This document shows positions 42,484 to 62,846 of a stretch of DNA of 64,000 bases, piece by piece. The DNA is taken from the NCBI GenBank assembly GCA_963777955.1, contig CAVZSQ010000013.1:512001-576000 (forward strand). Reading direction: 5' to 3'. The notes beneath the pieces were generated by a model. The model saw only the letters and a program-made list of their open reading frames with translations. It was not told the origin of the DNA and made no database searches. Positions within the stretch are counted from its first letter, which is position 1; each line of letters starts with the position of its first letter. Origin of the DNA: Calditrichia bacterium. Its GTDB lineage: Bacteria; Calditrichota; Calditrichia; JAJRVZ01. Position numbers and translations under genes: made by a program.

Positions 42484-42524
42484 CGTGGGACTTCGTGACA
42501 TATTTTGTTACACGAAGTCCCACG
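42484..42524. terminator. 14-bp hairpin of CACGAAG units between convergent genes
   Basis: cgtgggacttcgtg-N13-cacgaagtcccacg. Confidence 0.7.
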
Positions 42525-42564
42525 AAGATCCGCGGTGAAAAGACATGAAGAGATACTGGATAGT

Positions 42565-43698: not shown

Positions 43699-43831
43699 GC
43701 GACGATCCTCTTCTGCTATTGTTGTATTTTCGTATTGATTATATCTTTGATTTTATCTACACAATATTAATAATAAAATGTACTTTACGAAATAATTAAT
43801 ATACCCTTATCAGAATTCATATAAGAAAATA

Positions 43832-43934
43832 TTACACGAAGTCCTACGGCGAAGCAGCACGAAGGTACACGAAGATTAATTCAAGATAAACCTCGCCGAA
43901 GGTCTTCATTATTTCTTCGTGGATCTTCGTGTAA
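43832..43934. repeat. MITE-like element of CACGAAG units with terminal inverted repeats
   Basis: ttacacgaag ... cacgaag gtacacgaag ... cttcgtg gat cttcgtgtaa. Confidence 0.7.
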
Positions 43935-43993
43935 GAATTTATTTTTCGAAGTATGGCCGACTGGCACCTGTTTTATTTTGATGTTATGGCATA

Positions 43994-44446
43994 TTACTTG
44001 ATAACTTTTTCAAAACACAGACTGTTTTCTTTACCGGCGTATTGTCCAAAGTTTGGAATGCGGGTGTATCCATTCTTTTCATAAAGTCTGATTGCTTCCG
44101 GCTGTCGTTTTCCGGTTTCCAGGATACATTTTTCGCAGGACAATTCAGCCGCCCATTTTTCTAAATCAGTTAAAACTCCGGTTGCTATTCCTTTGCCTCT
44201 GTATTCCGGCAATGTGTACATTCTTTTAATTTCAGCAATATTCGGTGCATATTGTTTTATTGCCCCGCAGCTGACCGGTTTATCATTGTCATAGGCGACA
44301 ATGACAAATTTAATTTTATCGATTTTGTTGAATTGCGCATAAAAGGCATGTTCATCCCCGTCTCTTTCGGCCAACTCGGCATCAAGGTGTTTTACCAGCT
44401 CAATAAAATCACTGTTTTCAGAATTTGTTCGTACTATTCTAAGCAT
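43994..44446 (-). CDS. GNAT-family N-acetyltransferase
   Basis: EIKRMYTLPEYRGKGIA, LETG, AIRLYEKNGY. Confidence 0.9.
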   Translation of the reverse strand: MLRIVRTNSENSDFIELVKHLDAELAERDGDEHAFYAQFNKIDKIKFVIVAYDNDKPVSCGAIKQYAPNIAEIKRMYTLPEYRGKGIATGVLTDLEKWAAELSCEKCILETGKRQPEAIRLYEKNGYTRIPNFGQYAGKENSLCFEKVIK

Positions 44447-44544
44447 CTAAAGTTTGTTTAGCAGTAACGGTGTCATTATCAAATAGAAAATAATCGTATT
44501 CCTGATTTCCTCACACCTGATATATTATCTCGTGGAATCACTCT

Positions 44545-45786
44545 CTACGGCTCTGTGGATGGGAGGATATATTCACTTATAATATTTTTTATAGGTACCT
44601 TTTCGGCAGTATAGTAATTCCCTGCCGTCGAAACCACAACCAGGTTCCCGGCGGGGTAAACTATGATCCACTGGCCGCCCCAGCCCGCCGCCAGGTATGC
44701 CGGAAATTCGGTACCGTTAACGCTATCCCACTGCCACCACTGGTACCCGTATCCGTCGGCCCATGTATATTCATTTGAATATTGATTTGGATCTATAAAT
44801 TTTTGCGTAGACACATTTACCCATTCCTGCGAAATGATCCGCTCACCGTTCCATACACCTCTGTTTAGAAAAAGAGTGCCGAATTTAGCCATATCCCTGG
44901 GCCGCAGCATCAAATCTCCCGAAGCAAAAACGACATTATTGCTAAGATGCTGCCATTCAAAATCCACGATTCCGAGTTTACTGAACAAATAGGTATCAGA
45001 AAACTCATCCAGAGTTAAGTCGCTTGCTAGATGAACGATTTCTCCCAATACATTCGTATTGCAATTGTCATAATCGAAAACGGTACCGGGAGTTTCGGAT
45101 AATGGCTGCTTAAGGATATAGCGCAGCGGATCATTTGTCGTGAACAGTTGATATATATCATTGCGGGGATCGGAATAGGGAAATGTTTCGTCATCCCACT
45201 CGATTCCGGAGGTCATGGTGAGTAGATGTTTTATGGTAAGTTCCCGCTTCTCCTCAGCCCCGGCAAGAAGATCGGAGTATTCCGGGAAAAAATCGAACAC
45301 TTTTTCTTCTACTGAATCGACGAAACCTTTATCGATGGCGATACCGACCAGCGCCGATACTATGCTCTTCGTCGCCGAACAGAGTGTATGTGTATCATCC
45401 CTGTTGAATCCCATTTCTCCGGTGTACTCTGCCAGGCAAAATTTTTGACCTTCGAAATATTCCTCGAAAACCAGTTTCCCATCCTTCACAACAAGAAGAC
45501 TGTGTATGTTATGATCCTTGATGTAGTTTAAGCTGTTCAGCAATCTCTCTAAATATGTATAATCCATTCCTACTGCAGACAGGGATGCCGTTTCCCACCC
45601 ATCACCGGTTTGCCCCGGAACGACATAATGATATTCTCCGGCAATAGGATTAAAAGGGAGCTGGCCCTTCTGGCAAGAAAGTAGACCGCAACAGAAATGG
45701 ATGTAAAAAATCAGTAAAAGAAAGTTACCGGGTGTAGGCCAGATTCTGGCTTCCTGCCGATCATTCCCTGCGTAGGCATTCTTCAT
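44545..45786 (-). CDS. Serine hydrolase, beta-lactamase class C-like / NylB family, probable lipoprotein
   Basis: SATK (SxxK), YDN (YxN), HLLTMTSG, LRPRDMAKFG. Confidence 0.85.
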   Translation of the reverse strand: MKNAYAGNDRQEARIWPTPGNFLLLIFYIHFCCGLLSCQKGQLPFNPIAGEYHYVVPGQTGDGWETASLSAVGMDYTYLERLLNSLNYIKDHNIHSLLVVKDGKLVFEEYFEGQKFCLAEYTGEMGFNRDDTHTLCSATKSIVSALVGIAIDKGFVDSVEEKVFDFFPEYSDLLAGAEEKRELTIKHLLTMTSGIEWDDETFPYSDPRNDIYQLFTTNDPLRYILKQPLSETPGTVFDYDNCNTNVLGEIVHLASDLTLDEFSDTYLFSKLGIVDFEWQHLSNNVVFASGDLMLRPRDMAKFGTLFLNRGVWNGERIISQEWVNVSTQKFIDPNQYSNEYTWADGYGYQWWQWDSVNGTEFPAYLAAGWGGQWIIVYPAGNLVVVSTAGNYYTAEKVPIKNIISEYILPSTEP

Positions 45787-45833
45787 TAGAAAACTCCCCT
45801 ATGTGATAATAAAACCTGTATCCGTTCAAAAAT

Positions 45834-47516
45834 TTATTTCTGCCCTGTTTCGCCCTTGACCAGCATGCGCCGTAATACCTTGCCGACCATCGTCTTGGGC
45901 AGCGAATCGCGGAACTCGACATGTTTCGGAACCTTGTACCCGGTCAGCCGCTCCCGGCAGTAGGCGCGCAGATTCTCAACGGTAACCTGATACCCCTCGC
46001 GTACCACGACCCACGCCTTGACCACCTCGCCCTGGTACTCGTCTTTCACTCCGGCTACGCTCACTTCAGCCACTGCCGGGTGTGTCGCGATCACCTCTTC
46101 CACCTCGCGCGGCCAGACCTGGAAGCCGGCCGGCTTGATCAGATCTTTCTTGCGGTCGACGATGAACAGGTATCCATCCTCATCCATGTAGCCCAGGTCA
46201 CCGGTATATACCCAGCCATCGCGAATCATATCCGCTGTTTCATCCGGATGTCCCCAGAAACCCACCATGATTTGCGGTGCACTGATACACACCTCGCCGA
46301 TCTTTCCCGGCGGGAGGATTTGCTCCCCCGTATCCAGGTCAACGATCCGCACGTCCACATCCGGAACGGGGATGCCGATCGAACCTTCTTTGTAGGTGCC
46401 GTGAACCGGGCAGACGACTGCCGCCAGCATAGTTTCGGTCATCCCGTACGCGTCAAGCAGCAACCCGCCGGTCAGTGCTTCGAACCGGCGCTTGGTCTCG
46501 GCCAGCAGCGGCGCCGCCCCGGCATAGCATACTTTCATCGACTTGAAGTCCACCTGACCGGCTTTTACCTTCGGGTGGTTGAGCAAGGCAATGAACAGCG
46601 TCGGCACACCATGCAATACGGCGGGGCGGACTTTAATAATCGTATCGATCAGGTCATCGATGTCGCGCGGGTTGGGAATGACAGCCATGGGCCAGCGTGC
46701 CACAAGTGACGTGTTCAGCGCCATGTTGCCGTATACGTGGAACATGGGCATCACCAGGGTGATGATATCGTCCCAGTCAGCCAGCGCCGTTCGCCCGTAA
46801 GCATGGAGCTGCATCGCCGACATTAACAGCCCGTGGTGCGTGCCGAGTGCTGCCTTGGGTGTACCGGTGGTGCCGCCGCTGAACAGGAGAATCGCCGGAT
46901 CGTCAAGCGCCAGGGCAACGGCCGGACGGGTTGCATCGGCATGCTGGCGCATCAGGTCGCGCCACCACAGGTCGCCCGCTTGCAGCCGAATACGGTGGCC
47001 TTCCTTCTTTTCCTTGGCCAGGGTAAACAGCAAACGCAGGTGCACCGGCAGGTACTCTTTGATGTTTGTCGCGATCACGCGGCGGAGCTGCGTGTGCGCC
47101 TGCAGCGACTTGACCTTATCATAAAAAAGCGTCAGAACGACGACCGTCTCTGCGCCGACCTCGTTGAGCGCAAGCTCCAGTTCGCGTGGTGTGTACAATG
47201 AGTTGATGGGTACGGCAATAGCGCCTGCTTTCCACACGCCTAATTGTGCGATAATGCTCTGCGGTGAGTTCGGCAGCAGCAGCGCCACGCGGTCGCCCTT
47301 CTTGACACCCTGCGCCACGAGCGCGGCACCGAACTCGTTAGTCAACTGTTCCAGGCGCGCGTACGACATTCGTGCTCCTTTGAAGATCAGCGCGGTGTGA
47401 TCCGGTCTTTGGCGCACGGTATCACTCAGCACGTCCAGTAAAGTGCACTCAGGGTATGGTCGCAGCGTATGCGGCAGACCCGCTTCATAATGCTTCAGCC
47501 AGGATTTCTCGCCCAT
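45834..47516 (-). CDS. Long-chain fatty acid-CoA ligase (AMP-binding)
   Basis: FSGGTTGTPK, YGMTE, TGDLG, DRKKD, LPKTMVGK; visibly GC-rich relative to the window. Confidence 0.92.
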   Translation of the reverse strand: MGEKSWLKHYEAGLPHTLRPYPECTLLDVLSDTVRQRPDHTALIFKGARMSYARLEQLTNEFGAALVAQGVKKGDRVALLLPNSPQSIIAQLGVWKAGAIAVPINSLYTPRELELALNEVGAETVVVLTLFYDKVKSLQAHTQLRRVIATNIKEYLPVHLRLLFTLAKEKKEGHRIRLQAGDLWWRDLMRQHADATRPAVALALDDPAILLFSGGTTGTPKAALGTHHGLLMSAMQLHAYGRTALADWDDIITLVMPMFHVYGNMALNTSLVARWPMAVIPNPRDIDDLIDTIIKVRPAVLHGVPTLFIALLNHPKVKAGQVDFKSMKVCYAGAAPLLAETKRRFEALTGGLLLDAYGMTETMLAAVVCPVHGTYKEGSIGIPVPDVDVRIVDLDTGEQILPPGKIGEVCISAPQIMVGFWGHPDETADMIRDGWVYTGDLGYMDEDGYLFIVDRKKDLIKPAGFQVWPREVEEVIATHPAVAEVSVAGVKDEYQGEVVKAWVVVREGYQVTVENLRAYCRERLTGYKVPKHVEFRDSLPKTMVGKVLRRMLVKGETGQK

Positions 47517-47639
47517 TTTAGTCCTTCCTGTTTCTTCCCTGTAAAACTTCGTGCAGGAATATTTCCTGCGAATATCAGCGGAGAATCACGATAATATAAA
47601 CTTATCTAAATAAAAAATCACCAAAAAGAGGTTTAATGC

Positions 47640-47708
47640 TGGCGGGGTGGATGGCGTCCCACAGAACGCTGCTGATCGTCAAATTCGTCCCGAAACAGTA
47701 AAGACGGC
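47640..47708 (-). repeat. tRNA-3'-end-like / att-like repeat, copy 1
   Basis: Minus strand ends GCCAT-CCACCCC-G-CCA; about 65 nt similar to copy 2. Confidence 0.65.
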
Positions 47709-47723
47709 ACCAGTCTTTAATCT

Positions 47724-48851
47724 TTAATTTTTTTCCAATCCTGTCAGTACAACATCAATCACCATCATCTCCGAATCCCCTGTAGTCCTGACCGGGGGCC
47801 CCCATAGTTGAATACCACTGGTGACAAATACATGGGTTTTATTTATTTTTTTATACCCCCAGCTCAATTCGTAAATCTTGTCCGCAATATAGTTAAAAGG
47901 AAATAATTGCCCGTTATGTGTATGACCGGATACAAGGATATCAGCACCGCTAGCGCTGATATTCTGCAAATCCGTAGGTCGATGGTCGAGTATTATTACC
48001 GGAAGCTTGTCCGGTAGATTACCCACCAGATCACTAACAGGTTTTCTTTTGTAAAAATGCTGATCATTTCTGCCCAGCAGTGCAAAAGCATGGTTTATAA
48101 TAATGGTTGTATCGGTTAAGACCGTAATGTGGGCATTTTTAAAGAAATCTGTTCTTTCCCCCCCATGATAAAATTCATGATTACCTAATGAAGCATAAAC
48201 ACCATATTTAGTCTGAATTTGACTGAATTGCCGTTCGAATTCTGCCACCTGTTCATCCTGGCGGTCCCCTTCCAGGATATCACCAGGTAATAACAGGATA
48301 TCCGCATTTAATGAATTTACCTTTTTAACAAAATCCGGCATTAAATGATCAGAAGTCAGTTCACGCAGATGAAAATCGGAGGCGAGCAAAATCCTTAAGT
48401 GCTGCAATGCTGATGAACGCCGCGGTATTTCGATCTGGTACCTGTTTACTTTTATATCCGCGTACTTGAACATTCCAAACACAACTACCATTGCAGGGAT
48501 AATCAACAGGATAAAAAATGTTACAATTTTCATTCTTGGAGTTTGTAATTTTTCGGGTGCAATAATTTTTAACATTCTATTGACCACAAGTAATAGATCG
48601 CGACCTAAAACACTCAGGAACAGATATAACAAGAAAGGTAATAGCAGATAACCTGAAAGGATTAAAGAGTTTCCTAATCCTGATACCCTGGAGTGAGCAA
48701 GTGTCTCAGTCAGTGGAAACAAGAATATTAATAACCAGAAGCCTATGGTGAAGATTATTTTGCTATGTTTATGATTAAAAAGGTTAAGAATTCGGATATA
48801 TACATATATACCGGGTAATAGATAGATAGCGAAAACGATTGTAATAAACAT
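47724..48851 (-). CDS. Membrane-anchored metallophosphoesterase (YkuE-like)
   Basis: SDFH, GDI, GNHE, DHRP, GHTHNGQ; four N-terminal TM helices. Confidence 0.9.
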   Translation of the reverse strand: MFITIVFAIYLLPGIYVYIRILNLFNHKHSKIIFTIGFWLLIFLFPLTETLAHSRVSGLGNSLILSGYLLLPFLLYLFLSVLGRDLLLVVNRMLKIIAPEKLQTPRMKIVTFFILLIIPAMVVVFGMFKYADIKVNRYQIEIPRRSSALQHLRILLASDFHLRELTSDHLMPDFVKKVNSLNADILLLPGDILEGDRQDEQVAEFERQFSQIQTKYGVYASLGNHEFYHGGERTDFFKNAHITVLTDTTIIINHAFALLGRNDQHFYKRKPVSDLVGNLPDKLPVIILDHRPTDLQNISASGADILVSGHTHNGQLFPFNYIADKIYELSWGYKKINKTHVFVTSGIQLWGPPVRTTGDSEMMVIDVVLTGLEKN

Positions 48852-48950
48852 ATCCCCCCACGAATTTTTAATCGCAAGTAAAATGATTTTTAAATCTAAT
48901 GATTAAGATTTTTTTATGCAATCACTGAAGTAAGGTGAGATTTAATTTTA

Positions 48951-49016
48951 GCGGGGTGGATGGGGGTCCAACAGAGCCCTGATAACCATCACTGGCCTGA
49001 AAACAGAAAGACCGGC
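48951..49016 (-). repeat. tRNA-3'-end-like / att-like repeat, copy 2
   Basis: gcggggtggatgggggtccaacagagccctgataaccatc...aaacagaaagaccggc. Confidence 0.65.
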
Positions 49017-49033
49017 GACGATGACTTGCTATC

Positions 49034-49106
49034 TGACCCTCCCCATTCATCCCCTCCCTTTTAGCACTTCTTCGTGCTAAAAGGGAGGGGACAGAGGGGT
49101 GGGTTA
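49034..49106. repeat. Palindromic REP-like element just after a T9SS-CTD gene
   Basis: tcccctcccttttagcac-ttcttc-gtgctaaaagggagggga with outer arms tgaccctcccc / ggggtgggtta. Confidence 0.8.
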
Positions 49107-49107
49107 T

Positions 49108-51372
49108 TCATCTCAACAAAATAAGTTTCTTCGTTTCTGCATGACTCCCTGCTTGTAACCGGTACAGATATACCCCGCTGGCTAAACCCGCTGCATTCCA
49201 ATCGACTTCATGCCTTCCAGCAATTAGATTTTCATTTAATAACGAAGCCACCTGCTGTCCCAACTGGTTATAAATCCGCAGGGTAACATAATTGGAATTT
49301 GGAATTTGGAATTTGATAGTGGTGCTTGGATTGAACGGATTTGGAAAATTCTGTTCCATACCAAAGTCCTGCGGCGGAATTGCTGAATCCGCAGGTTTTA
49401 TCGCAGTGTCGATGGTATCCCCTTCGGCGCTGAAATAAAACTTTAACAGCTGGAACAACTTGCCGGCTTCGCTGCCGGTGAATTTCAAATAGACATCGTG
49501 CCGTCCGGAAGCGGGTTTTACCTCTGCAGAAAAGGTTTGAAATGTTGTCAAGCCGCCGGTATTGCCGATGGAACACTCGGCAATTTTATCGCCGGTCTCC
49601 AGTGAATCGAGCCACACTTCGACATTGCCGCCGGTGGTGGCGCTGGAGGCGATGATCTTCAGCGAATCCGGTATCTTGTCATATTCCTCATTACCTCCAA
49701 ATTCAACGCCGGCATACATCGCCCAATCATTCACGTGGATGTTATCCAGTACATATCCCTGGCGGGTATAGGTCCTGGAGTTGCCGTTCTGGTTGGCATA
49801 ACCTTCACCGGCAATCGGCGAATAAGCATCGCGGTAGATATAAAGGTCGAAATCAGCCGGACTGCCCTTGACGTATAACCCCTGCCTGTTACCGGTAAAG
49901 GCATTATATTCCGACTGCTGAACATCCATGGTGGAAACATTTATGGATTTTCCGACTCGGGTCCAGTAACGGCCGTCGGCGCTGAAATAACCGGTCAGAA
50001 CATGGTTGGATCGCAATAGTTTTAACCAGACAATATTACCGCTGGTGTTTTCGGCCTCGTAATACGTTTTATCAAAACTGAAACAAATGACTTTTGTACC
50101 ACCGGTGTTCAGTGAACTATAAAGTTTGGCATAGAGAGTTTGTAAACCGGTCATGATACGCAGCCCGGCTTCATCGCTGGTTGCTTTAGGATCAAAATCG
50201 AGTCTGGTAATAAGAGCATAGTTATGTTCGGCATCACTTTTGATGATGGTGTTATGCTGGTTTTTGGGCGATAATCTTATCCAGCCGGGACGGTCGGTCA
50301 GCGAGTATGGACTGAGCGGAGAATAGCCTAACAACCTCCATTCGGGATTTAATTTATCCGAACTGAAAAAGTCCGATTTGGGCACCATCCAGGGGATGCC
50401 GCTGCTGGGCAATTGGGGCGCCTGCCTCGGTTCATTGATCGGAAAATCGGCAACCGGTTTACCGGTGGTGTCATAGCGCACCTGGCTCACCAGGCCCTGG
50501 CGACCCAGACCTTGCCATTCACTGATTCCATATGATTGATAAATCACCCACCAGGTACTGTCGTCGGCCATGACAGCAGGTGAACAGTGATTGGGCAAAC
50601 TGTACAGGGAGGTAGCTTTTTTGGGATCCTCTTCATTGAAGAAATTACCGAGGTATTCCCAGGCGAAGTCTGTCTGCGTAAGTGTTGCGCTTCTCATTAC
50701 CCGCTGTGTGGCATAGATGTGAATGGCGAAACTATAATAATAATAACCTTTGTGTTTCCACATCACCGGACCTTCGGCCCAGCTGTAGGGATAGTCAGGC
50801 GCCGGATTGATCCAGCATAAATTATAAATTGCGCCGGCGGGCTGCCCGTTACTGCCCAATTGCAGGATCCAGTTATTGGATTGGCCGTTTTTGACCAGCA
50901 GATACCAACTTCCGTCGTCATCGATAAAAATGGAGTTATCCATGCCGAGTCCCGGCACACTTTGCGGACAGGTCATCGCCACCGGCGAACTCCAGGGACC
51001 TGCAGGACTGTCTGCCGTTACGAAATACATGGTTCCGGCATGGCCGAAGAAATGCCAGTATTTGTTATCATAAAAAACCAGATGGCCTCCCCAGCACCCC
51101 GAGGTCGGGGTGGTTCCAAACAGTGACCAGCTATTACTCACCGGCTGGGAAACCGCTTCCCAGTGAATAAGATCGGTCGAATGGTAAATAATCGGCGTAG
51201 TGGCGAATGATGAACCGGTGGTGTAATAGTCATTTCCGAATTTGGATAAGGTACAATCCGGATGATCGCCCGGAATGACCGGATTCATATAAGTCGTAAA
51301 CGACGGCGATTGTCCGTACCCATAACTCCATATGAATAGACAAAAACAAAATAGTATATATAATCTTTTCAT
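49108..51372 (-). CDS. Secreted GH43 glycoside hydrolase + beta-sandwich + CBM6-like + T9SS CTD
   Basis: NPVIPGDHPDC, GMDNSIFIDDDG, WAEGP, GRHDVYLKF, MEQNFPNPFNP. Confidence 0.85.
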   Translation of the reverse strand: MKRLYILFCFCLFIWSYGYGQSPSFTTYMNPVIPGDHPDCTLSKFGNDYYTTGSSFATTPIIYHSTDLIHWEAVSQPVSNSWSLFGTTPTSGCWGGHLVFYDNKYWHFFGHAGTMYFVTADSPAGPWSSPVAMTCPQSVPGLGMDNSIFIDDDGSWYLLVKNGQSNNWILQLGSNGQPAGAIYNLCWINPAPDYPYSWAEGPVMWKHKGYYYYSFAIHIYATQRVMRSATLTQTDFAWEYLGNFFNEEDPKKATSLYSLPNHCSPAVMADDSTWWVIYQSYGISEWQGLGRQGLVSQVRYDTTGKPVADFPINEPRQAPQLPSSGIPWMVPKSDFFSSDKLNPEWRLLGYSPLSPYSLTDRPGWIRLSPKNQHNTIIKSDAEHNYALITRLDFDPKATSDEAGLRIMTGLQTLYAKLYSSLNTGGTKVICFSFDKTYYEAENTSGNIVWLKLLRSNHVLTGYFSADGRYWTRVGKSINVSTMDVQQSEYNAFTGNRQGLYVKGSPADFDLYIYRDAYSPIAGEGYANQNGNSRTYTRQGYVLDNIHVNDWAMYAGVEFGGNEEYDKIPDSLKIIASSATTGGNVEVWLDSLETGDKIAECSIGNTGGLTTFQTFSAEVKPASGRHDVYLKFTGSEAGKLFQLLKFYFSAEGDTIDTAIKPADSAIPPQDFGMEQNFPNPFNPSTTIKFQIPNSNYVTLRIYNQLGQQVASLLNENLIAGRHEVDWNAAGLASGVYLYRLQAGSHAETKKLILLR

Positions 51373-51424
51373 AAATTTTCCTCCTGGAGGATTTTCTACT
51401 CAACTATGTGTTCAAAATATAATA

Positions 51425-53286
51425 CTATTTTATTAAAATAAATTTTTTTGTATCTGCAAAATTACTTGTGCGCAGCCGATAGAAATAAATGCCGCTACTC
51501 AAACCTGATCCATTCCATTCCACCTGATGCATACCTTCATTTAAATATTCGTCAAGTACGACGGCCTCTTTTTGTCCGCGCAGATTATATATTTCCAGGG
51601 TGACAAAATTGGAATTTGGAATTTGGAATTTTATCATGGTGCTTGGATTGAATGGATTCGGATAATTTTGTCCCAGGAAAAAGTCGCGGGGCATTTGGTT
51701 TAAAGAATGGTCATCATCAGGACCCATTCCGGTGGGCGTACCGGCGAATATTCTGAACCAGTCGAAATCGACATATCCTCCGGTGGCTATGGTTGCATAA
51801 TTAAACAGACAAAATTTATTCCCGGTAAAAATTGAAAGATTGAATTGCATTGAAAGGTCATTGCCAATCTTGATGAACGATTTATTATCAAGACTATAGG
51901 CGAACGAAACCCTGCTTGTGCCATAATTAGCCTGTGCCCGTAAATATAGTGTTAAAGAATCAACCAAAGCAGAATCAATTGCGGTGCCGTTGTTAATCAT
52001 TACGACATACCTGACATCCCCCATTTTTTTGATACCGATATATGCATATGGATTCTGAAACACCGCCAGCCCCGCCACATCGCCATTTTGCATATTAGCG
52101 GTATTAATTTGAATTGTAGCAGTTGTCGGCAAAGTTCTAGTGTAGTAAGCAAAAATTCTTTGGGTAAGGGTATTGCGGGCATCACGCAAATTAGATACGA
52201 TTTTGGCGGTTTTCAGCCTCAAGTGTCCCGGATTCTCCGTCAGCGACCATTTGGTTGAATCCGGATTATGGTTCCAACCCCATTGCAGGCCTAACCTGGT
52301 ACTATCAAATTCATCAGAAGTGGGTAATACAGTAATCGGATACTCGTTTACCCACGTTTGGCTTGGTATGCGTGATAACACCTTTTCCGTCGACGCCAAC
52401 CATCGGCCAATCATCCTGCCAGGTAACCGGCTGTAAGGAGGGAAACCGTCCAAACGCTCCGCCATCCTGAAAAATGATCGACCACCATTCACCCGTTTGA
52501 GTTTCTATCAGCGCTCCCTGGTGCAAGCCCGTGCCCAGATATCGAATCGTCCCTGATAACGATCATTTCATCATAGGGGCCGTATATATTATCTGAACGC
52601 AGGGCCACCTGAAATCCGTCCCGGCCTCCGTAAGTGCAATATAAATAGTAGTAACCATTAATTTTATATACATGGCTGCCTTCAAGACCGGCCCGGATAT
52701 CCCCGGTGAAAACTAAAACATCGCTGCCTTTAGCAGTAAAATTTGTATCTAATTCAGTAATAGAGATGTTGCCGTATCCGTGGGCGACATAGATCCTGCC
52801 GTCATCGTCAAAAAACAAGCCAGGATCATAAAATCCCCTGGGCAATTTTCTTATTTTCCAGGGTCCTTCGGGTTTTGTTGCCGTGCATATAAATCCACCT
52901 TCGTCGAGTGTAATGAATAATAAATAATACTTGCCATTTTTGTATTTTAAACTGGTGGCCCACTGCCCGTGAGAGTACCTGTTACAACCGTCAAGATTGT
53001 AGCAGGGACTAAAATCCATCCGCTGTACGGCGTTACAGCAATATTCCCAGTTTACCAGGTCGTACGATTTTAGTATGGTAACTCCCGGGAAAATGAACAT
53101 GGTTGTTGAAACCATGTAATAGGTAGAATCCACCCGGATTACATCAGGATCGGGAAAATCAGAATAAATTACCGGATTGGTATACGTTCCGTCCCCATTA
53201 TCGCTTTGAGTTTTCTGCGCAGAAAGAGGGCACGAAAAGTAAAATATAAAATTAATACAAAAAAAAACAAAGATATATCTTTTCAC
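51425..53286 (-). CDS. Secreted GH43 beta-xylosidase-like enzyme + T9SS CTD (frameshift near 52530)
   Basis: NPVIYSDFPDPDVIR, YDPGLFFDDDG, LEGSH, HQGAL, LQWGWNHNP, LGQNYPNPFNP. Confidence 0.87.
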
Positions 53287-53403
53287 ATTGCTGCCCTGCT
53301 TTATGTGTATTAGTAACCGTTTTTTCTCGTTAGTGCGGGTGGCGGGTGAATCTACAGTGCACCTGACTCTTAACGGGCAGGCATGATTGTCAGTACGCTG
53401 CAT

Positions 53404-54436
53404 TTATTTTAATAACATCATCTTCCTGGTCAGGATTCCGTTATCGGTGACCATCCTGTAAATATATACTCCCGTACTCAGGTTAGTACCGTTAAACTGA
53501 ACACTGTGCCGGCCTGCTGACATATAATCATTTAGAAGCGTGATTATTTCGCGCCCATATAAATCGAAAACTTTGAGATTGACTTTGGACTTATTGGATA
53601 ATTCAAAAACAATATTCGTTGTTGGATTGAATGGATTGGGATAATTTTGCCTTAAGCGATATTTCCCCGGCAGAGTAGTTGTTTCTTGCTCAACATCAGT
53701 ACCGCTGCCTTCGTTAAATAGAAAAAGAACTTCGTCTGCAGTCAGAACCCGGTTGTAGATACTACATTTGGGTATCTCACCAGTCCAGGCGGCATCGCCA
53801 GTATACCCGCCCTTGCCCAGATAAGCAGAGTCCACGCTGACGAGGGAAATGTTATTATTAGCAGCCAGAGTATTAGTGTCAACCGGCGCACCGTCAATGT
53901 ACAGGGTTATATTAACCGGATCAATGGTGCATGCCATATGATGAAGTTCCCCGTCATCCAGTTCGGGACCGTCCACACCTGTTTCGGCGTTCCAGGGACT
54001 GCTTGAATAATCACCGCAGGCAATGGCGGCGCGGCATTTATTATCACCTCTGGCCGGGCTGAAAAAGATGCAATCAACACCTAAGCCATTATTGGTTTTA
54101 CCAAAATAAACCAGCATATGATAATTGGGATTACCGCTGGCAAAGGGCATGAACCAGGCTGAAATGGTAACTTCGTCATATGTATTTATTGAAATTGTCG
54201 CGGCAGGCAATTCCAGGTAGGAACCGACGGCTGCCAACAGCAGCGATCCATCGACGATCTCGGCACTCCCCTTTAACGTACCATTGGCACCGCCGATGTA
54301 ATCATTGGCGCTACCGTCATCGAACGTCCAGGAATGAGTCAGGTTTTCGAGTGCCCGGATCAACCTGAGCGTTTAAATTGGTAATTAGGACCAGAACGGA
54401 AACAAAGAACAAAAAATAATGTAATTTTTTATACAT
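53404..54436 (-). CDS. Secreted LamG/ConA-like jelly-roll protein + T9SS CTD (frameshift near 54350)
   Basis: Signal peptide from ATG 54436; HSWTFDDG, LHHMAC, IYNRVLT, LRQNYPNPFNP. Confidence 0.8.
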
Positions 54437-54557
54437 ATTTCTTCTCCTTAAAATAATTTGTTTAATTATAAAATTTATCAAGCAAATATAGATAGTAGCA
54501 AGATCAAGTGGTAGCCATTTAATGCTAATAATTCACCAAATAGCGCAGGGAGTAATC

Positions 54558-55698
54558 TCAATGCGGTTTATGAAGTTTACGGAATTCGCGCAGGCCGATT
54601 CCCTTTTGTTTCTTGAAAAATCTTGAAATATGTTCGACATCCGTGAAATTAAAAAGGGCTGTTATTTGTGAAATGGGCAGGTTGGTTTCAATCAGCATTT
54701 TTGATATCAATTCGACGCGCACCAGCTGAATTTCATTATAGATGGATCTGTGAACAGTCCTTTGAAATCTTTTCTCCAGCGTTCGCCTGCTGATTCTCGT
54801 CGTACCAACTATATCTTTCACCAGAATTTTATTTCTGGCATTGTTCTTGATGTATTTAATTGCCGACGCAACTTCGCTGTCATCTACGGCCAGGATGTCG
54901 GAAGACTGTCTCTGAACAATATGGCTCGGCCTGACCATTATCTGTTTTCCCGCAATCTTTTTTTTCATGATTAAGCGATCCAATAATTTCGCAGCCTCAA
55001 AACCGGCCGACTCGACATTCAAGGCGATGCTGGTCAGGGGCGGATCTTCCAATTCACAAATCATCGGATCGTTATCGACACCCAGCACGGCAACTTCTTC
55101 CGGAACTTTGAGATTGATTAATTTGCATACCTCCAGCACGTGTTGCCCGCGATCGTCGTTGCAGGCAAATATGCCGACAGGTTTTGGCAAATCTTTAATC
55201 CAGGTGCACATCTGTTGCTGTTCATTCTCCCAATCCTGACGCCGTTTATTCTCGGCCGACACATAATTGTGGGTTTTCAAACCGGCTTTAAGATTAAATT
55301 TTTTAAAATAATTTTTGCGCTCTTCCGACCAATCATATTGATCGAAACCGCAGAAGGCCAGGTGTTTAAACCCTTTTTCGATAAAATGATCGCTGGCCAT
55401 TCTGGCAATTACTGTAGAATCTGTTTTAATTATCGGCAAATCTTTGGGGTATGAGGAATTATGAATAACCAATATGGTGGGAACTTTTAGCCGCAGTAAT
55501 TCCTTGCTGATCAGGGAATCGCGCATGATAATTCCGTCTGGTTTCCAGCTGGTCAAATGAGGAATTGATGATTTCAGATCAATAAGCTTCTTTGAAAAAA
55601 GTCCATGGCCCGTAAAGTTTCGAGTACCGGGCAATACCGATAATTAATTGCCTGCCAAAGGCGCGTGAAGTTTCTAAAAGCAAAACAATTTTTTTCAT
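54558..55698 (-). CDS. XylR-type regulator (periplasmic-binding fold + AraC), frameshift near 55585
   Basis: MKKIVLLLETSRAFGRQLIIGIARY, GIFACND, VAVLGVDND, SRRTLEKRF, SRFFKK. Confidence 0.87.
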
Positions 55699-55935
55699 AT
55701 CTATTTTCTGCGGAGAAAGAATATTTGACAGCTATTAAAACCTGTCCCTATGAATTATCACTGCAGCATTAATTCAGCCTTTCGCACATTCTGCCATTGA
55801 AAAGTAGATGTCTTCCTTTATGCTCTGATTCAATCCGATCTTTAACCTGCCCCCCTACGAGGATCCAATTTAATATATTGGAAGTCATCAAGAAAGGGAA
55901 GATATGAGTAAACAGAAGTACAATCTTGAAAAGAC

Positions 55936-55956
55936 AAAAAAACTCCTTCAAAGGAG
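55936..55956 (-). terminator. Rho-independent terminator just downstream of tRNA-like copy 3
   Basis: Minus strand CTCCT-TTGA-AGGAG-TTTTTTT. Confidence 0.6.
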
Positions 55957-55967
55957 GTCTTCGACCT

Positions 55968-55992
55968 GCGGGGTGGATGGGGTCCCACTGGG
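55968..55992 (-). repeat. tRNA-3'-end-like / att-like repeat, copy 3
   Basis: gcggggtggatggggtcccactggg; minus strand CCCAT-CCACCCC-G-C. Confidence 0.65.
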
Positions 55993-55993
55993 A

Positions 55994-56018
55994 AATTCAA
56001 TTATTATTTAATTGAATT
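55994..56018. promoter_or_regulatory. 10-bp inverted repeat upstream of the RND operon (possible operator)
   Basis: aattcaatta-ttatt-taattgaatt. Confidence 0.35.
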
Positions 56019-56111
56019 GTATTCAATACTCCAATTAAATTGTGGCATAACAAATATTAAAGGTTGTTATTCCTGCCTTATAATAAAGTATGAAATGGAG
56101 AGGATCAGAAA

Positions 56112-57164
56112 ATGCTTAAAAAGCGATGGATCATTTTAGGGATTATGATTCTGCTAGTACTTGTTATTTATCTTGTATTCACTCTTGTACCAAAGAATAA
56201 AGTTGTACTACAGGCCATAACGACGGATATTCCGGTTGCCATAACCACGGTACAAAAGCAAAAATTGACCGACAACATTTCATTGATTGGGACCATTAAT
56301 GCCAGCAACGATGTTAATGTGATTTCCGAAACACAGGGTACGGTCAGAACTGTATATGTAAAGGTCAGCCAGTACGTTAGCAGCGGGACTATTCTGGCCC
56401 AGGTGGATGATGAGATCCCCCGCTCTAATTTGGCGGCTGCCGAGATCAATTATCAGAAAGCCATACGTGATTATGAACGAAGTGAGGCTCTGTACCAGGA
56501 AAATTCGATCAGTCCGGCTCAGCTGGATGCGGCCCGTCTGGGAATGAAATCTGCCGAAAATCAAAGAGATATAGCCCGTCGTCAATTAGCCAACACCCAG
56601 ATCAAATCCCCGATCCAGGGCACAGTTAACTCCCGCTTTATCAATGTCGGTACCATGGTGCAACCGGGTATGACCGTGACTAATATCGTCGATATCTCAA
56701 TGCTCAAAGTAAGTGTCAATGTGACCGAACAGGAAGCCTTCAAATTGAAACCGGGAGATACTGTCGAAGTGAACACCGATGTGTACCCGGAACATAAATT
56801 CATCGGACGGGTGGATAATATAGCCGCGAAAGCGGATGCGGCTCATACATACCCGCTTGAGATTATCGTCCCGAATGACAACAAGTATCCCCTGAAAGCC
56901 GGGATGTTTGCCCGGGTAACCTTTATCTCCATGACTCGGGATGAAGTACTGACTATCCCCAGGATCGCTCTGATCGGCAGTATCCGTAATGCCCAGGTTT
57001 ACCGGATTAATAAAGGAATGGCTAATTTATATTCTTTGGTCATCGGTCGGCAATCAAGTGAATATCTGGAAGTGCTCAGCGGAATAAGTCAAAGTGATAC
57101 GATTGTTATCAGCGGACAGAATAATCTGGTGGATGGATCCAAAGTAATAATTATTGGTAAATGA
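56112..57164 (+). CDS. RND efflux periplasmic adaptor (MFP)
   Basis: N-terminal TM helix, ISETQGTV, IKSPIQG, LKAGMFARV. Confidence 0.92.
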   Translation: MLKKRWIILGIMILLVLVIYLVFTLVPKNKVVLQAITTDIPVAITTVQKQKLTDNISLIGTINASNDVNVISETQGTVRTVYVKVSQYVSSGTILAQVDDEIPRSNLAAAEINYQKAIRDYERSEALYQENSISPAQLDAARLGMKSAENQRDIARRQLANTQIKSPIQGTVNSRFINVGTMVQPGMTVTNIVDISMLKVSVNVTEQEAFKLKPGDTVEVNTDVYPEHKFIGRVDNIAAKADAAHTYPLEIIVPNDNKYPLKAGMFARVTFISMTRDEVLTIPRIALIGSIRNAQVYRINKGMANLYSLVIGRQSSEYLEVLSGISQSDTIVISGQNNLVDGSKVIIIGK

Positions 57165-57235
57165 GTAAATACTCATTTTTATCGGACTGACCAGCGAATA
57201 AAATTCGATAAACTCATTAAAAGGACACCTCTGAC

Positions 57236-60200
57236 ATGACCATTACCGAAGTTGCTATTAAACGACCTTCTCTGATAATCGTGATCTTTCTGGCCTTAGG
57301 GATACTGGGTTTATTCGGGTATAACCAGTTACGATACGAATTATTACCCAGATTCAATATTCCCTTCATCAGTATCCAGACCATTTACCCCGGAGCCTCA
57401 CCAACTGAGGTAGAAAGCAGCATTACCAAACCGCTTGAAGATGCTGTTTCCAATCTGGAAAAAATTGAAAACATCTTTGCCACCTCTTACGAAGGTTTGT
57501 CCCTGTTGAACATCCAGTTTGGTCGTACCGCCGATATCGATCAATCCATCCAGGATGTACAACGCAAAATAAACAGTGTGATGGTAAACCTGCCCCGTGA
57601 TGTGCGCCCGCCGGTGATTCAAAAATTTTCATTTGAAGAATTACCGGTGCTACGGCTGGCTGTTAGCAGCGATATGCCCTCCCGCGAATTTTACCAACTG
57701 TTGAAAAACCAGATCCAGCCTTTATTTGCCAAAATTCCAGGGGTGGGACAGGTTTCCCTGATTGGCGGTGATATCCGGGAAATCAGGATTAATCTGGATG
57801 CCCAGAAAATACGCGCCTATAATCTTTCTATTCCCCAGATCACCCAGATTGTCCGTGCCTCCAACCTTGATTTTCCAACCGGTGCCATCAAAGGATCTGA
57901 ATCACAATCGATTGTACGCATTTCCGGCAAGTTTACTTCCATCAATGAGCTGCGCAACCTGATCATCATGCGTTCCGAACAGGGTGGAGTTGTACAATTG
58001 GGTGATGTGGCTGAAATTGAAGATGGCTTGCAGGATTTTACCTCGTTTAGCCGCATCAACGGTAAAAATGCTGTCGGGATCAATATTGTCAAGCAATCTG
58101 ATGCCAACACGGTGGAAGTCAGCCAAAGGGTCCGGGCCACTATCCAACAAGCAGAGACCCAGTACCAGAATATAAACCTGAAATTCGATATCGCACAGGA
58201 CGCATCAACCTTCACCATTGAAGCTGCCAATGCGGTAAAACATGATCTCCTGATGGCCATATTACTGGTTTCAGCCGTGATGTTCTTGTTTCTGCATAGT
58301 GTCCGTAATTCGATCATCATCCTGATCTCCATTCCGGCATCCCTGGTTACGTCCATCCTGGCCATGTGGGCTTTCGATTTTTCGCTGAATCTAATGACCC
58401 TGCTCGCCCTTTCCCTGGTAATCGGGATCCTGGTGGATGACTCCATTGTGGTTCTTGAAAATATTTATCACCATCTGGAGAAAGGGGAAGATCGTGCCGC
58501 CGCCGCCTTACGCGGTCGGAATGAGATCGGTTTTGCCGCCCTTTCTATAACTCTGGTTGACGTTGTGGTCTTTGTACCGCTTTCGGTCATCGTTGGACTG
58601 GTAGGCGATATCATGCGGGAATTCTCTATCGTCGTGGTGGCGTCTACGCTGATGAGTTTGTTTGTATCCTTTACGCTTACACCGATGCTGGCTTCCCGGT
58701 TTTCCAAATTGGAACAGGCTTCGGGGGCCTCAGCACAAACGCTATCAGGTCAGCTGGGCTATTGGTTTGAAAAGGGATTCCGCTGGATAACCGATCACTT
58801 TCTAGGAGTATTGAACTACAGTTTAACCAATGCAGGAAAGGTGCTGATAGTGACGGCGGTTATTTTCATTATCACACTGTTGTTGCCGTTTTTCGGCCTG
58901 ATTGGAATGGAATTTATGAAAGAGTCGGATCAGGGATTGTTCATTGTCCGGCTGGAATTGCCCCCCGGGGCTACTCTGGAAAATACTAACCGGGTGACCA
59001 TGCAGGTAGAGAAAATGATCGCGGCTATTCCCGAAGTAAAAAAGATTTTGACCAGTGTTGGGGCGGTATCGTTTGGAGCATCAGCTCCTAATAAAGCCGA
59101 ATTGATGGTAACCCTGTCCGACCGCAATCTGCGCCAGCGTTCGACTACCGATCTGACCAATGAAATTAAACTGAAGACAAAACAGATTCCCGGAACCAAA
59201 GTGTATGTCGACCAGGTTTCTATAACCGGGATGGCCGGTGGTGCACCGATCCAGATCTGGGTTTCCAGCAGTAATCCGGATTCCCTGCTGACCACAGCCA
59301 ATCTGGTAGCCGATGCCCTGCGTAGAACTCCCACGGTGAACGAAGTTACCATCTCGATGGAAATGGGCAATCCGGAAACCCGCATTGAAGTGGACCGGCA
59401 AAAGATGGCCACATTTGGATTGACCGTTTTCGATGTCGGAACAACTTTACGGGTAGCTCTGACCGGTGATGATGAATCCAAATACACGGAAGGTTCTTAC
59501 GAATATCCGATCCGCCTTGTCCTGGACCGTTTTAACCGCTCTAATCCCAATGATATTGCCAGATTACCATTCATGAACTCAATGGGACAGCAAATTGAGT
59601 TACAGCAATTCGCCCAGATTGTACAATCCAGCGGTCCGACCAAAGTCGAACGCAAGAACCGTAATTCATCATTAAACATTTCAGCGTATATTGATAATAG
59701 CATCCCACTGGGCAATGTGGTTCAGGCTTATCAGAATATCCTGGGAGACAACAAAGCACTGGGCACCAGCATCGAATTCGAAGGAGCTGAAAAAGACCGG
59801 GCAGAGAGTTTTAATCAGTTAGGTATTGCCCTGCTGGCCGCAATTTTATTCGTTTATTTTATCATGGTAGGTTTATACGATTCTTTTGTCTACCCTTTTG
59901 TTGTGATCTTCTCGATTCCACTGGCCTTAATCGGAGCATTGCTGGCACTGGCCCTCAGCGGAAATGCCCTGAGTATTTTTTCGATTCTCGGTATTATCAT
60001 GATGGTGGGACTGGTGGCTAAAAATGCAATTCTGCTGGTGGATCGGACCAATGATAACCGGGAGCGCGGGTTGACTGTTCACGAAGCATTGATCGAAGCT
60101 GGACAGATGCGTATTCGGCCTATATTCATGACCACCTTATCGATGGTGTTTGGCATGTTACCTATTGCCCTGGCCAGGGGAGCCGGTTCAGAATGGAAAA

Positions 60201-60385
60201 ATGGCCTGGCCTGGGCCTTAATCGGAGGTTTGACCAGTTCGATGTTTCTTACCCTGGTCATTGTGCCGATCGTCTATATCCAAATCAATAAACTACGTAC
60301 CAATATACCACTATTGTTTAGACATCCCTTTGCGATCCAGCGTTACAACAGGATGAAAGCACTGGCTGAGGGCAAAAAACAATAA
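57236..60385 (+). CDS. RND efflux permease (AcrB/HAE1-like)
   Basis: YPGASPTEVE, GILVDDSIVVLEN, KNAILLVD, RIRPIFMT. Confidence 0.95.
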   Translation: MTITEVAIKRPSLIIVIFLALGILGLFGYNQLRYELLPRFNIPFISIQTIYPGASPTEVESSITKPLEDAVSNLEKIENIFATSYEGLSLLNIQFGRTADIDQSIQDVQRKINSVMVNLPRDVRPPVIQKFSFEELPVLRLAVSSDMPSREFYQLLKNQIQPLFAKIPGVGQVSLIGGDIREIRINLDAQKIRAYNLSIPQITQIVRASNLDFPTGAIKGSESQSIVRISGKFTSINELRNLIIMRSEQGGVVQLGDVAEIEDGLQDFTSFSRINGKNAVGINIVKQSDANTVEVSQRVRATIQQAETQYQNINLKFDIAQDASTFTIEAANAVKHDLLMAILLVSAVMFLFLHSVRNSIIILISIPASLVTSILAMWAFDFSLNLMTLLALSLVIGILVDDSIVVLENIYHHLEKGEDRAAAALRGRNEIGFAALSITLVDVVVFVPLSVIVGLVGDIMREFSIVVVASTLMSLFVSFTLTPMLASRFSKLEQASGASAQTLSGQLGYWFEKGFRWITDHFLGVLNYSLTNAGKVLIVTAVIFIITLLLPFFGLIGMEFMKESDQGLFIVRLELPPGATLENTNRVTMQVEKMIAAIPEVKKILTSVGAVSFGASAPNKAELMVTLSDRNLRQRSTTDLTNEIKLKTKQIPGTKVYVDQVSITGMAGGAPIQIWVSSSNPDSLLTTANLVADALRRTPTVNEVTISMEMGNPETRIEVDRQKMATFGLTVFDVGTTLRVALTGDDESKYTEGSYEYPIRLVLDRFNRSNPNDIARLPFMNSMGQQIELQQFAQIVQSSGPTKVERKNRNSSLNISAYIDNSIPLGNVVQAYQNILGDNKALGTSIEFEGAEKDRAESFNQLGIALLAAILFVYFIMVGLYDSFVYPFVVIFSIPLALIGALLALALSGNALSIFSILGIIMMVGLVAKNAILLVDRTNDNRERGLTVHEALIEAGQMRIRPIFMTTLSMVFGMLPIALARGAGSEWKNGLAWALIGGLTSSMFLTLVIVPIVYIQINKLRTNIPLLFRHPFAIQRYNRMKALAEGKKQ

Positions 60386-60397
60386 AGAGGTAACAAA

Positions 60398-62846
60398 ATG
60401 AACAAGAGTTTTGTTGTTATTTCCTCGTTAATTATTTTGTTATTAAATATTTCCTTCTCCAAAGCTCAAAATTCATCAGCGGGCCTGGGTTTGCGCATCG
60501 GTGTAATTTTCGATGGCCCCTGGGATAAAAACCAGGAACTCTTTGAACTGATCAAGAAAGAAGTTACTGAAGTTGCCATCGGCAATTATAAAATCATATT
60601 TCCTGCAGACAAATGTCTGACGGGTGACTGGAGCGTGAACGGCGTCCGAAAACTAAATGAGCAATTATTAACTGATCCCCAGGTGGACCTGATCATTGGT
60701 TTCGGAGTTTTTTCTTCCCAGGATCTGGCCCGGCGTGGATCCCTCCCCAAACCGGTCATCGCCCCGATCGTGATCAATCCTGAAAAACAGTATATTCCCA
60801 TTCAGGGAGGTACCAGCGGTATCCATAATTTGAATTACCTGGTTTACCCCCAGACCTTTATCCGCGATTTTTCCCTTTTCAGGGAAATGGTTCCCTTTAA
60901 AAAACTGGTTTTCCTGACCAGCAAACGTTTCCATGACGGCGTTCCCCCTACCCGCCCGGATGATGAAGAAATAAGCAAGACACTTGGATCCGCTTTTATT
61001 ACCATCCGGTTTGACGATTTTGCCGAACAAGCACTGGCAGCCCTTCCGGCAGATGCCGATGCCGTTTACCTGGATGTTATCCCCTTGTCCAGGAGTGAAT
61101 TTGAAAAATTGGTGCGCGGACTGATTAAACGACGATTGACCAGTTTTTCGTCCATAGGAGAAACAGAAGTACGTGCCGGCATCATGTTTGCCGCCAACCC
61201 GGATATTTTCCCGCGTATGATCCGGCGTATTGCCTTGAATATTCAACGCATCATGATGGGAGAAGATCCTGGTTCACTGGCAGTGAACTTTCCAGCCGGG
61301 AAAAAATTGTACATTAATGTAACCACCGCTAATTCCATCGGTATCTTTCCCAAATGGACCACCCTGCTGGAGGCAGAATTAATCGATCCGGTTACACCCG
61401 AACCTTCGGCGCTTTCATTTACCTTAGCCAGTGCCATGCAGCGGATCAGTACAGAAAACCTGGATGTTCAATCTAAAATGAAGGAATTGAACACACAACA
61501 GAAGAACATAGCTCTGGCCCGTTCTATCCTGTTGCCCCAGATTAATCTGAACGCCACGGGAGTCCAGATCGACCAGGATCGGGCGGCTGCCGCATACATG
61601 CCGGAGCGAAGTGCTGCGGCAGAAATCAGTTTGAATCAAGTTCTATTTTCAGAATCCGCTTTGGCAAATCTTAGTATTCAGTCTTCTCTGTATCGGGCTA
61701 AGGAAGATGAATTTGAAGTCAACCGCCTGAACAATATCGTGGACGGTGCGACGATTTATCTGAATTACCTGCGGGTGAAGAAAATATACTTAACCTTGCT
61801 TGATAATCTGAGAGTAACCCGCTCCAATCTTGAACTGGCTCAAATCCGGCAGAGTACCGGGGTCGCCGGAGCGGAGGAGCCCTTGCGCTGGGAAATAGAG
61901 ATTGCCCGGATGCGACAGGATGTTATGGCATTGCATTCGCAGATGAATCAAACCGGTTTGGTCCTGAATCAAATACTGAATCTGCTGCTCATTCAGCCAT
62001 TGAATCCTGCTGACCTGGCCATCGATGATGCCACCTTGTTCATTTCCGACAAAAAACTGCAAAGTTACCTGGAGGATCCATTAAGTCTGGCCATCCTTAC
62101 TGAGTACATGGTCAAAGAAGGCCTGGACCGGGCCCACGAATTGCATCAACTGGACGCGGTTATTCAGGCTCAGCAGCGCGCACTCACCTCCTCCCGTAAC
62201 GCCTTTTTTCTGCCGACCATCGGTGCATTCGTACGCTATACTAATAACTTTTATAAATCATCGCAGCCTCAGCCTTTTCAGGCTGAGTGAAATCCCGGCA
62301 CCTCCGGCCGGCCTGGATCCTGATGTTCCCCTGTACCTGGGCCGGTTATTTTCAGCAGTTACACCGGCTCTGCCGGATCGTCATGATTGGACGGTTGGAA
62401 TTCAATTTTCGTTCAATTTATTTAGTGGTTTATCCAAACTGGCCAATGAACAAAAAACCAGGGAACAATTAAAGCAATATCAGTTACAACGCCAGGCCAC
62501 AACCGACAGGGTGGCCTTGAGGATCCGCTCGGAAATGCAGAATGCAAAATCGACCTACTTTGCCATTCAGCAAACCCGCCTGCGACTGGAAGCAGCACGA
62601 AAAACAATCGATCTGGTGACGGATGCTTATTCCCGCGGTGCTGTCTCCATATTGAATCTACTGGATGCCCAGAACGCCCAATTATATGCGAATCAATTAA
62701 CCATCCATGCGTATTATGATTTTATGATCACCTACTTTCAATTACAACGGGCTCTGGGACAATTTGATCTGCTCATGACTCCGGAAAAACGGGATGAGTT
62801 TCTACAGAAATTAATCCAGTTCATGGAAACCACCCGTAAACCTTGA
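60398..62846 (+). CDS. TolC-family outer membrane factor with an N-terminal substrate-binding-protein-like domain (frameshift near 62277)
   Basis: About 330-aa N-terminal domain (IGVIFDG, DPQVDLIIGFG, LYINVTTANSIG) followed by OEP repeats (ARSILLPQINL, FFLPTIG, YSRGAVSILNLLDAQ). Confidence 0.85.

Follow-up and report, generated by a model that had tools for sequence, protein, structure and literature searches.

Same-sense repeats behind tRNA-Asp in a Calditrichia genome: probable junctions left by large serine recombinases

Introduction

What are the short, same-sense repeats that stand between unrelated genes in a Calditrichia genome, and what has put them there? The repeats lie in a stretch of 64,000 nucleotides (hereafter the window; G000:C13:512001-576000, that is, contig CAVZSQ010000013.1 of the Calditrichia bacterium assembly GCA_963777955.1), and positions below are window coordinates unless another prefix is given. 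G000 denotes this genome and G001 a relative of the same genus. A preliminary description of the window had taken the repeats for scars of repeated integration at a tRNA gene. Our analysis indicates that large serine recombinases (LSRs) of one family, which insert at the last bases of tRNA-Asp, have quite probably left them as attR/attI-type junctions.

Results

Repeat copies in the window

As the preliminary description had stated, a 13-mer occurs exactly at 47642, 48951 and 55968, on a single strand and each time between genes. Under a dinucleotide model 0.003 exact matches are expected in the window, for a motif that was chosen post hoc. When two mismatches were allowed no extra copy was found in the window, and 25 of 100 shuffled sequences reached three matches; the strength of the observation therefore lies in the exact matches and in the longer arm. 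An arm of about 65 nt is common to copies 1 and 2, also as described, and copy 3 retains about 21 nt only (nhmmer model positions 1–21, E 0.014).

Copy 1 (47642..47711, minus strand) consists of a putatively attP-derived arm of about 50 nt and a tRNA-Asp-like core, with the CCGC end at 47642, and read on the plus strand it encodes the attP-type tail of an LSR. Copy 2 (48951..49016, minus strand) has arm and core. Copy 3 (55968..55988, minus strand) keeps the core, but of the arm no more than its first ~7 nt, the remainder being replaced by the AT-rich promoter region of an efflux operon. The copies had been read on the minus strand as a tRNA 3' end closed by CCA, which applies to copy 1 (CCA after G) and not to copies 2 and 3.

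The tRNA-Asp anchor and the order of contigs

ARAGORN found 41 tRNAs in G000. The earlier reading took the repeats for displaced 3' ends of a host tRNA expected to start with GGGGTGG. None of the 41 ends in CCACCCCG, however, and the sole tRNA-Asp begins GGTCCGG and finishes TCTCGTCCGGACCGC. As the 3' end of the repeat is found in no host tRNA, displacement from host tRNAs does not account for it. The further claim of att junctions from repeated integration at tRNA-Asp was borne out, as the only tRNA-Asp of the genome (C3:240637-240712) heads the same junction family. The first repeat lies 3.0 kb downstream of it in the same sense, and the repeats of C3 lie 3–8 kb downstream. When tRNA-Asp ends and repeats were catalogued, identical right-flank families were found behind both, invariably after CCGC, and the break between C3 and C4 falls inside one junction of that catalogue.

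C3 terminates within a repeat and C4 opens with a flank seen behind repeats elsewhere, which indicates that the two contigs join. C4 ends inside an arm and no contig continues it, so we infer its link to C13; the sign of the GC skew agrees with the resulting order. In the family member G002, tRNA-Asp adjoins orthologues of the GNAT gene of the window (79%) and of the genes at 17–27 kb of the window, in a relative orientation opposite to that of the window. If the contigs stand in this order, the same-sense stack from tRNA-Asp would span at least ~70 kb.

Around the gene there are tRNA-Asp pseudo-copies and 3' halves, with short palindromes in the D, anticodon and T loops (G000:C3:240233-240900; L004:8234-8900), and the G002 and G004 loci have the like. 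Several Calditrichota carry, after tRNA-Asp, tandem units that each comprise a tRNA 3' half and a small gene (L025, L046, L050, L051; L004:11860-12100); we take the small gene to resemble a GIY-YIG nuclease. No tmRNA, tRNA-Cys, Gly(GCC), Ser(GCT), Ser(TGA) or Lys(CTT) was found by ARAGORN in G000. A foreign origin is possible for the very GC-rich bases at the start of C22 and at the end of C15.

Distribution of the repeat family

The exact 13-mer occurs five times in the 4.24 Mb of G000. A sequence model of the ~65-nt family found eight copies in G000 and 14 in G001, and gave only three weak single matches (E 0.003–0.005) in the other 84 of the 86 phylum genomes. The total for G000 is 11 once three partial ones are counted: the truncated copy 3, a copy that C4 cuts off at its end, and a decayed junction close to where C27 starts. 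They sit in C4 and C27, at the end of C3 and in the final 52 kb of C13, in a single sense on each contig; the family keeps to a small number of neighbouring loci with one orientation, and the expectation that it would not be scattered held. The ~50-nt arm is conserved over 23 aligned copies.

Elsewhere, an exact-pattern search of metagenomes returned nine contigs, three of which represent one locus. Viral contigs gave two chance matches in coding DNA, none for the arm and no LSR of the clade described below, and the plasmids searched gave one chance match only. The short core pattern in G001 and in G055, another Calditrichota genome, was too unspecific to be informative. One GC-rich metagenome contig from another host (L038:1875-10036) has four same-sense copies, 2.3–3.2 kb apart, within 8.2 kb. 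A hairpin element is inserted within the core region of the copies at L003:8040-8135 (G000:C4) and L031:1380-1460.

The arm and the tails of large serine recombinases

In the LSR frame the repeat translates as RGGWGSHRTLMIVTF. Two LSRs, P0155 and P0159, are identical over 78 residues and then continue as QGAKRTLLKVIATY in P0155 and as RDSNSQLPA, the tRNA tail, in P0159. Back-translated, QGAKRTLLKVIATY lies 6 nt at best and 9 nt at the median from the repeat, of 33 nt (23 aligned copies), and none of 5000 control peptides matched the repeat as well. In a second set, P0009 and P0124 against P0123, the tail switches in another frame, directly after the residues encoded by the core; here the tail lies 4 nt at best and 7 at the median from the repeat, of 27 nt (null: 0 and 1 of 3000). 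Of the 68 other cluster members listed, no more than these two have a clear attP-type tail.

The variation of the arm peaks at the third codon positions of the LSR frame (0.75 vs 0.30 bits; column-permutation p 0.003, for 23 copies that are related and not independent). In this frame 16 synonymous and 32 non-synonymous distinct changes were counted; the synonymous count in any of the five others is 2–11. One G is missing from four of the 23 copies, copy 1 included, which puts them out of frame. Three of these are in C13, where frameshifts are common, so some of the G-short copies may be assembly errors. These comparisons identify the arm as the attP side of the site of a tRNA-Asp-targeting LSR family; the exchange takes place at CCGC.

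Within the phylum, LSRs are present in 7 of the 86 genomes, and four of the eight loci are at a tRNA. The gene of the G055 LSR (L089; 537 aa) runs into a tRNA-Asp whose 3' end is the same, and its last codons contain the terminator hairpin of that tRNA. Among the best 25 proteins listed for it (itself included), 21 end in the antisense peptide of tRNA-Asp, and a lysine pair stands at the expected position of the terminator T-run in 18 of 20 LSR tails. At the junction the tails read RSG, RGG, RGR, RDG, RDR or RSQ, and this variety implies that acceptor stems differ among the hosts. A search for the far end of the G055 element did not find it, and phages gave only distant LSRs (27% among the ten matches listed).

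Comparison with a relative of the same genus

The preliminary description had supposed that module borders in relatives would coincide with the repeats. They do so in G001, where the neighbours of matching genes change at or beside all three copies; cassette content behind the tRNA was thus observed to vary between relatives, for one relative only. At copy 1 the arm side is unrelated in the two genomes and the sequence is near-identical from the core onward, this right flank standing in G001 (L017) behind a decayed copy. The match over the acyl-CoA ligase region (88% over 1810 nt) ends at 47652, inside the core, and in G001 the ligase has repeat copies on both sides, followed by another module. 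At copy 2, G001 has a terminator after the repeat, next a true tRNA-Asp 3' half, and only then the flank of copy 2, the difference being an extra segment of ~130 nt in G001 between two CCGC sites. In place of copy 3 and the efflux operon, G001 has a tRNA-Asp 3'-half remnant and an esterase-like gene before xylR. A repeat copy stands ~700 nt ahead of the hydrolase in G001 and is absent here.

A short, identically truncated flank, which includes an inverted tRNA-Glu scar, is common to copies with unrelated cargo in both genomes. This suggests that LSR-free ends were themselves propagated. Four public sequencing runs gave thin cover over 42500–62400, and no joint at a repeat, circle or empty site was seen at that depth.

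Modules and cargo of the window

Pfam confirmed that the metallophosphoesterase (47724..48851, minus strand) is the sole gene between copies 1 and 2. This one-gene module of 1309 nt has a GC content of 37.8%, against ~45% in its surroundings, and both of its ends are clear, whereas those of the other modules are eroded. The unit proposed between copies 2 and 3 was likewise recovered by Pfam as a xylan-type module (49108..55699, minus strand; 7017 nt) with a XylR-type regulator, a LamG protein, a second GH43 that is split into two open reading frames (ORFs) in this assembly, and a GH43-CBM6 protein; three secreted proteins of this module, the LamG and GH43-CBM6 proteins among them, end in a sorting tail of the type IX secretion system (T9SS). 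The xylR gene is frameshifted here and is one open frame in G001, where the GH43 gene is open up to the contig end. Single-frameshift splits of genes were seen at 51425-53403, 54558-55699, 33223-35755 and 42565-43698, and such frameshifts in the window are probably assembly indels.

On the distal side of copy 1 lie the acyl-CoA ligase (AMP-binding; 45834..47516, minus strand), with a repeat on one side only in this genome, and then the genes of a beta-lactamase-family hydrolase and a GNAT protein (43994..45786, minus strand; Pfam). The RND efflux operon (56112..62846, plus strand) is the distal end of the next segment, and the next repeat copy beyond it is 28 kb away, at G000:C13:595931. Modules measure 1.3–10 kb, except for one segment of 28 kb. 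The description of the modules as integrase-free was right: a scan of 24 window ORFs and 99 array ORFs found no recombinase family. Their cargo had also been called metabolic, which is true of a part only, the rest being largely T9SS-tailed secreted proteins, Ser/Thr kinase-TPR proteins, sensors and toxin-antitoxin-like pairs.

The right flank of junction 1 (47600..47641, minus strand) has a decayed hairpin and T-run, and there the ligase module begins. The terminator reported after copy 3 was found again as a minus-strand hairpin and T-run at 55956-55943; this terminator-like stretch (55935..55967, minus strand) belongs to a family that also occurs after tRNA-Asp and after other copies. A G/C-rich intergenic hairpin (49031..49109, unstranded) stands between the GH43 stop codon and the arm of copy 2, similar hairpins stand before other repeat copies, and it is probably a separate repeat resembling repetitive extragenic palindromes (REP). 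A promoter scan gave matches at chance level only.

A second stack at tRNA-Glu

A second stack, with 13 scars in C6, C25 and C17, was found at tRNA-Glu(TTC) (L075-L079; C6:45138-52768, C17:277746-299104). Each scar is composed of an arm of ~35 nt and the 3' end of tRNA-Glu, and LSRs which read into tRNA-Glu occur in the phylum. The LSRs of the Asp and Glu types could not be aligned by BLASTP, and a single enzyme for both stacks was therefore rejected. Blocks of 4.0, 2.0 and 1.2 kb are common to C25 and the end of C17 (88–92%), and represent either duplicated modules or two strains in the bin.

Inverted scars of the tRNA-Glu type are present in the common left flank of Asp modules (C3:244309-244362, C27:6059-6219, C27:9657-9721) and also in G001 (L016, L021, L031), and for one gene of the Asp stack of G001 the closest match in G000 (72%) belongs to the Glu stack. 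ITIYNDR, a candidate right-flank peptide, was rejected as a peptide, the segment being an inverted tRNA-Glu scar; its five-row profile gave two matches among 1.84 billion proteins, only to short repeated stretches. A 52-aa junction peptide had no match among longer proteins in a weak search.

Discussion

Proposed origin of the repeats

In a complete element of the proposed kind, the LSR gene would point at the tRNA and its last codons would cross the attachment site. With the element integrated beside the tRNA, the end of the protein would be an antisense reading of that tRNA; in the circular form, or where the element follows an older one, the tail of the protein would be encoded by the attP arm, which is the repeat. 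A serine recombinase requires only a two-base core to match, so element and host may differ to the left of the core. The crossover falls within the terminal CCGC, to the right of the difference between element and host, and the host would therefore keep its own acceptor stem while the distal scar would be the tRNA-like copy of the element. The tRNA-like 14 nt and the arm would both derive from the attP of the element. Each new insertion would push the older modules off from the tRNA, giving a same-sense stack, and tandem junctions would rebuild attP. With the LSR gene lost, the modules would now be islets like cis-mobilisable elements (CIMEs). A visiting LSR of the family may cut them out, insert them again or take them along; otherwise they may erode by deletion. 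Mobilisation in trans, as the preliminary description had it, is plausible. The order of events, present-day mobility and the linkage across the assembly gap are inferred.

Several observations weigh against this origin. No LSR was found in G000 or G001, and no intact element with an LSR and the exact arm at its far end was found in DNA, so that protein tails make the link; similarity between the right flank and the 3' end of the G055 LSR was significant for only two of four flanks. Some borders are not clean: no arm follows the metallophosphoesterase of G001, where homology ends ~10 nt outside the arm, the ligase lacks a distal arm in G000, and copy 3 is truncated. The end of C13 is unjoined to C4, C27 begins with another decayed junction, and the contig order rests on sense, on the sign of the GC skew and on the tRNA-Asp neighbourhood of one family member. 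The only full tRNA-Asp seen in G001 (L024:1466-1541) has an element-type acceptor end and two acceptor-stem mismatches; an intact tRNA-Asp with element-type bases means that at least one crossover took place to the left of the mismatch.

Alternative explanations

A wider interpretation would make the stacks at tRNA-Asp and tRNA-Glu a serine-recombinase counterpart of integrons, that is, recombinase-free cassette stacks kept by the host and moved by visiting LSRs which are blind to the tRNA allele and switch their tails. The activity of the LSR would then be set by its tail, a tRNA tail if integrated first and an attP tail if circular or in tandem. As the crossover would lie in the last 3–4 bases of the tRNA, any tRNA-Asp allele across phyla could be used. 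We put this forward tentatively, as a possible if doubtful extension.

Clearly less probable is that the modules are dead relics, full LSR elements whose gene was deleted in place, the differences between the genomes having arisen by deletion, homologous recombination and transformation. Such relics would be expected to have eroded or missing arms, as is seen (copy 3 included), and the shared modules are 83–90% identical, about the level of the shared chromosome. The third-position variation of the arm also fits descent from many coding donors. Neither genome yielded an LSR: PF07508 and PF00239 had no match in G000 (91.8% complete), and PF07508 had none in G001 (92% complete). However, tblastn with nine LSRs of the clade found the tRNA overlap only, all else being at E 0.019 or worse, and so no decayed LSR pieces. 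The same short truncated flank on several modules of unrelated cargo, and two breakpoints exactly in the core, also speak against relics.

It is very improbable that a tyrosine recombinase moves the modules, whether from an integron or as a mismatch-tolerant integrase of the phage type, with the repeats as attC-like or overlap sites. Four tyrosine recombinases were found in G000, namely XerD, an XerC-like protein, an integrase at tRNA-Phe and a fragment of an integron integrase (L074:2594-3139, C20), the last being full length in G001 (L083). The hybrid tRNA of G001 would fit a mismatch-tolerant overlap, a mechanism known from IntDOT and NBU1 of Bacteroides. However, the 23 copies have no consensus fold, there is no repeat near the integrase loci, and the arm is tied to the tails of serine recombinases.

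Hardly to be expected is a version in which the repeats are displaced from a host tRNA that ends in CCACCCCG and is absent from the assembly. The assembly is indeed incomplete, and the core would suit tRNA-Asp of the GGGGYGG type in other hosts, as implied by LSR tails reading RGGRDSN. Yet tRNA-Asp starts with GGTCCGG in the six Calditrichota genomes examined and in three more, true displaced halves of tRNA-Asp stand separately in the stack, and arm and core match the attP-type LSR tails in frame. A cis-regulatory RNA, a small RNA or a repeat of the REP or miniature inverted-repeat transposable element type is just as hard to credit: the copies are intergenic and often lie between a stop codon and a terminator, but Rfam, run over the window stretch and four array loci, gave tRNA-Asp alone at gathering score, with weak hairpin matches that miss the repeats, the consensus fold of the 23 copies has zero predicted pairs, and the copies occupy few neighbouring loci in one sense beside unrelated genes.

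Relation to known systems

Integrons are same-sense arrays of small modules without a recombinase of their own, and in this the stack at tRNA-Asp resembles them. It differs from them in that the repeats have no attC-type fold (zero predicted pairs), no integron integrase stands beside the array, tRNA-Asp forms its head, and the modules carry promoters and genes in both orientations. The stack is not an integron.

The ssrA islands of Dehalococcoides, in the part of the report drawn on here, stand in tandem behind the RNA gene, with target-like repeats and a conserved element-side motif; 15 of them are without an integration module, and DsiB, a CcrB-like serine recombinase of ~540 aa, has a 3' end which overlaps attL and a stop codon which depends on the sequence beyond (PMC3146451). 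So far as that part goes, our stack agrees in having several same-sense att junctions behind one RNA gene (given the proposed link of C13 to C3/C4), a conserved element-side motif, the ~50-nt arm, beside a target-like repeat, and an LSR gene whose 3' end overlaps the att site in the phylum and the clade, G000 keeping the tail codons only. By the same partial account, it differs in its target, the extreme 3' end of tRNA-Asp and not the T-loop of tmRNA, in its repeat, a mismatched element-borne version and not a direct copy of the host gene end, and in that no integration module was found in either genome (both ~92% complete). It is thus outside the ssrA family proper.

CIMEs, as the portion of the review used here puts it, have lost integration and transfer genes and kept their att sites, and new elements insert at the target end and push older ones outward (PMC5704250). 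The tandem examples given there involve tyrosine integrases and stand beside integrative and conjugative or integrative and mobilisable elements, whereas our stack is wholly recombinase-free and its proposed enzyme is an LSR. Additive flexible genomic islands and tycheposons, in the extracts at hand, have cassettes behind a tRNA and partial tRNA repeats, and the integrases of tycheposons are mostly tyrosine recombinases, 910 of 937 (PMC7771536, PMC10872708, PMC5217437, bioRxiv 10.1101/2020.12.28.424599). Their repeats are exact pieces of the host tRNA, unlike ours, and those extracts do not describe a conserved coding arm. The general process, stacking by repeated integration, is already known, and what we describe is not a new system.

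Significance

The position of the crossover, in the terminal CCGC, is fixed by the mismatch between element and host, and attB, attP and enzyme candidates that match one another are obtained. The clade is seemingly blind to the tRNA-Asp allele, which is of interest for integrase tools. In the open-access literature we found nothing relevant about serine integrases that act at tRNA-Asp, or about genomic islands in Calditrichota. It has been speculated, in the part of the Dehalococcoides report drawn on above, that such integrases are perhaps fully active only with the tail encoded by the circle (PMC3146451). Since one and the same protein is found naturally with either tail, and the variation of the attP tail resembles that of coding sequence, the idea can be put to a direct test. 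Island finders keyed on an integrase or on an exact tRNA repeat would probably miss both stacks, in which secreted-enzyme and signalling genes of a little-studied phylum take up tens of kilobases.

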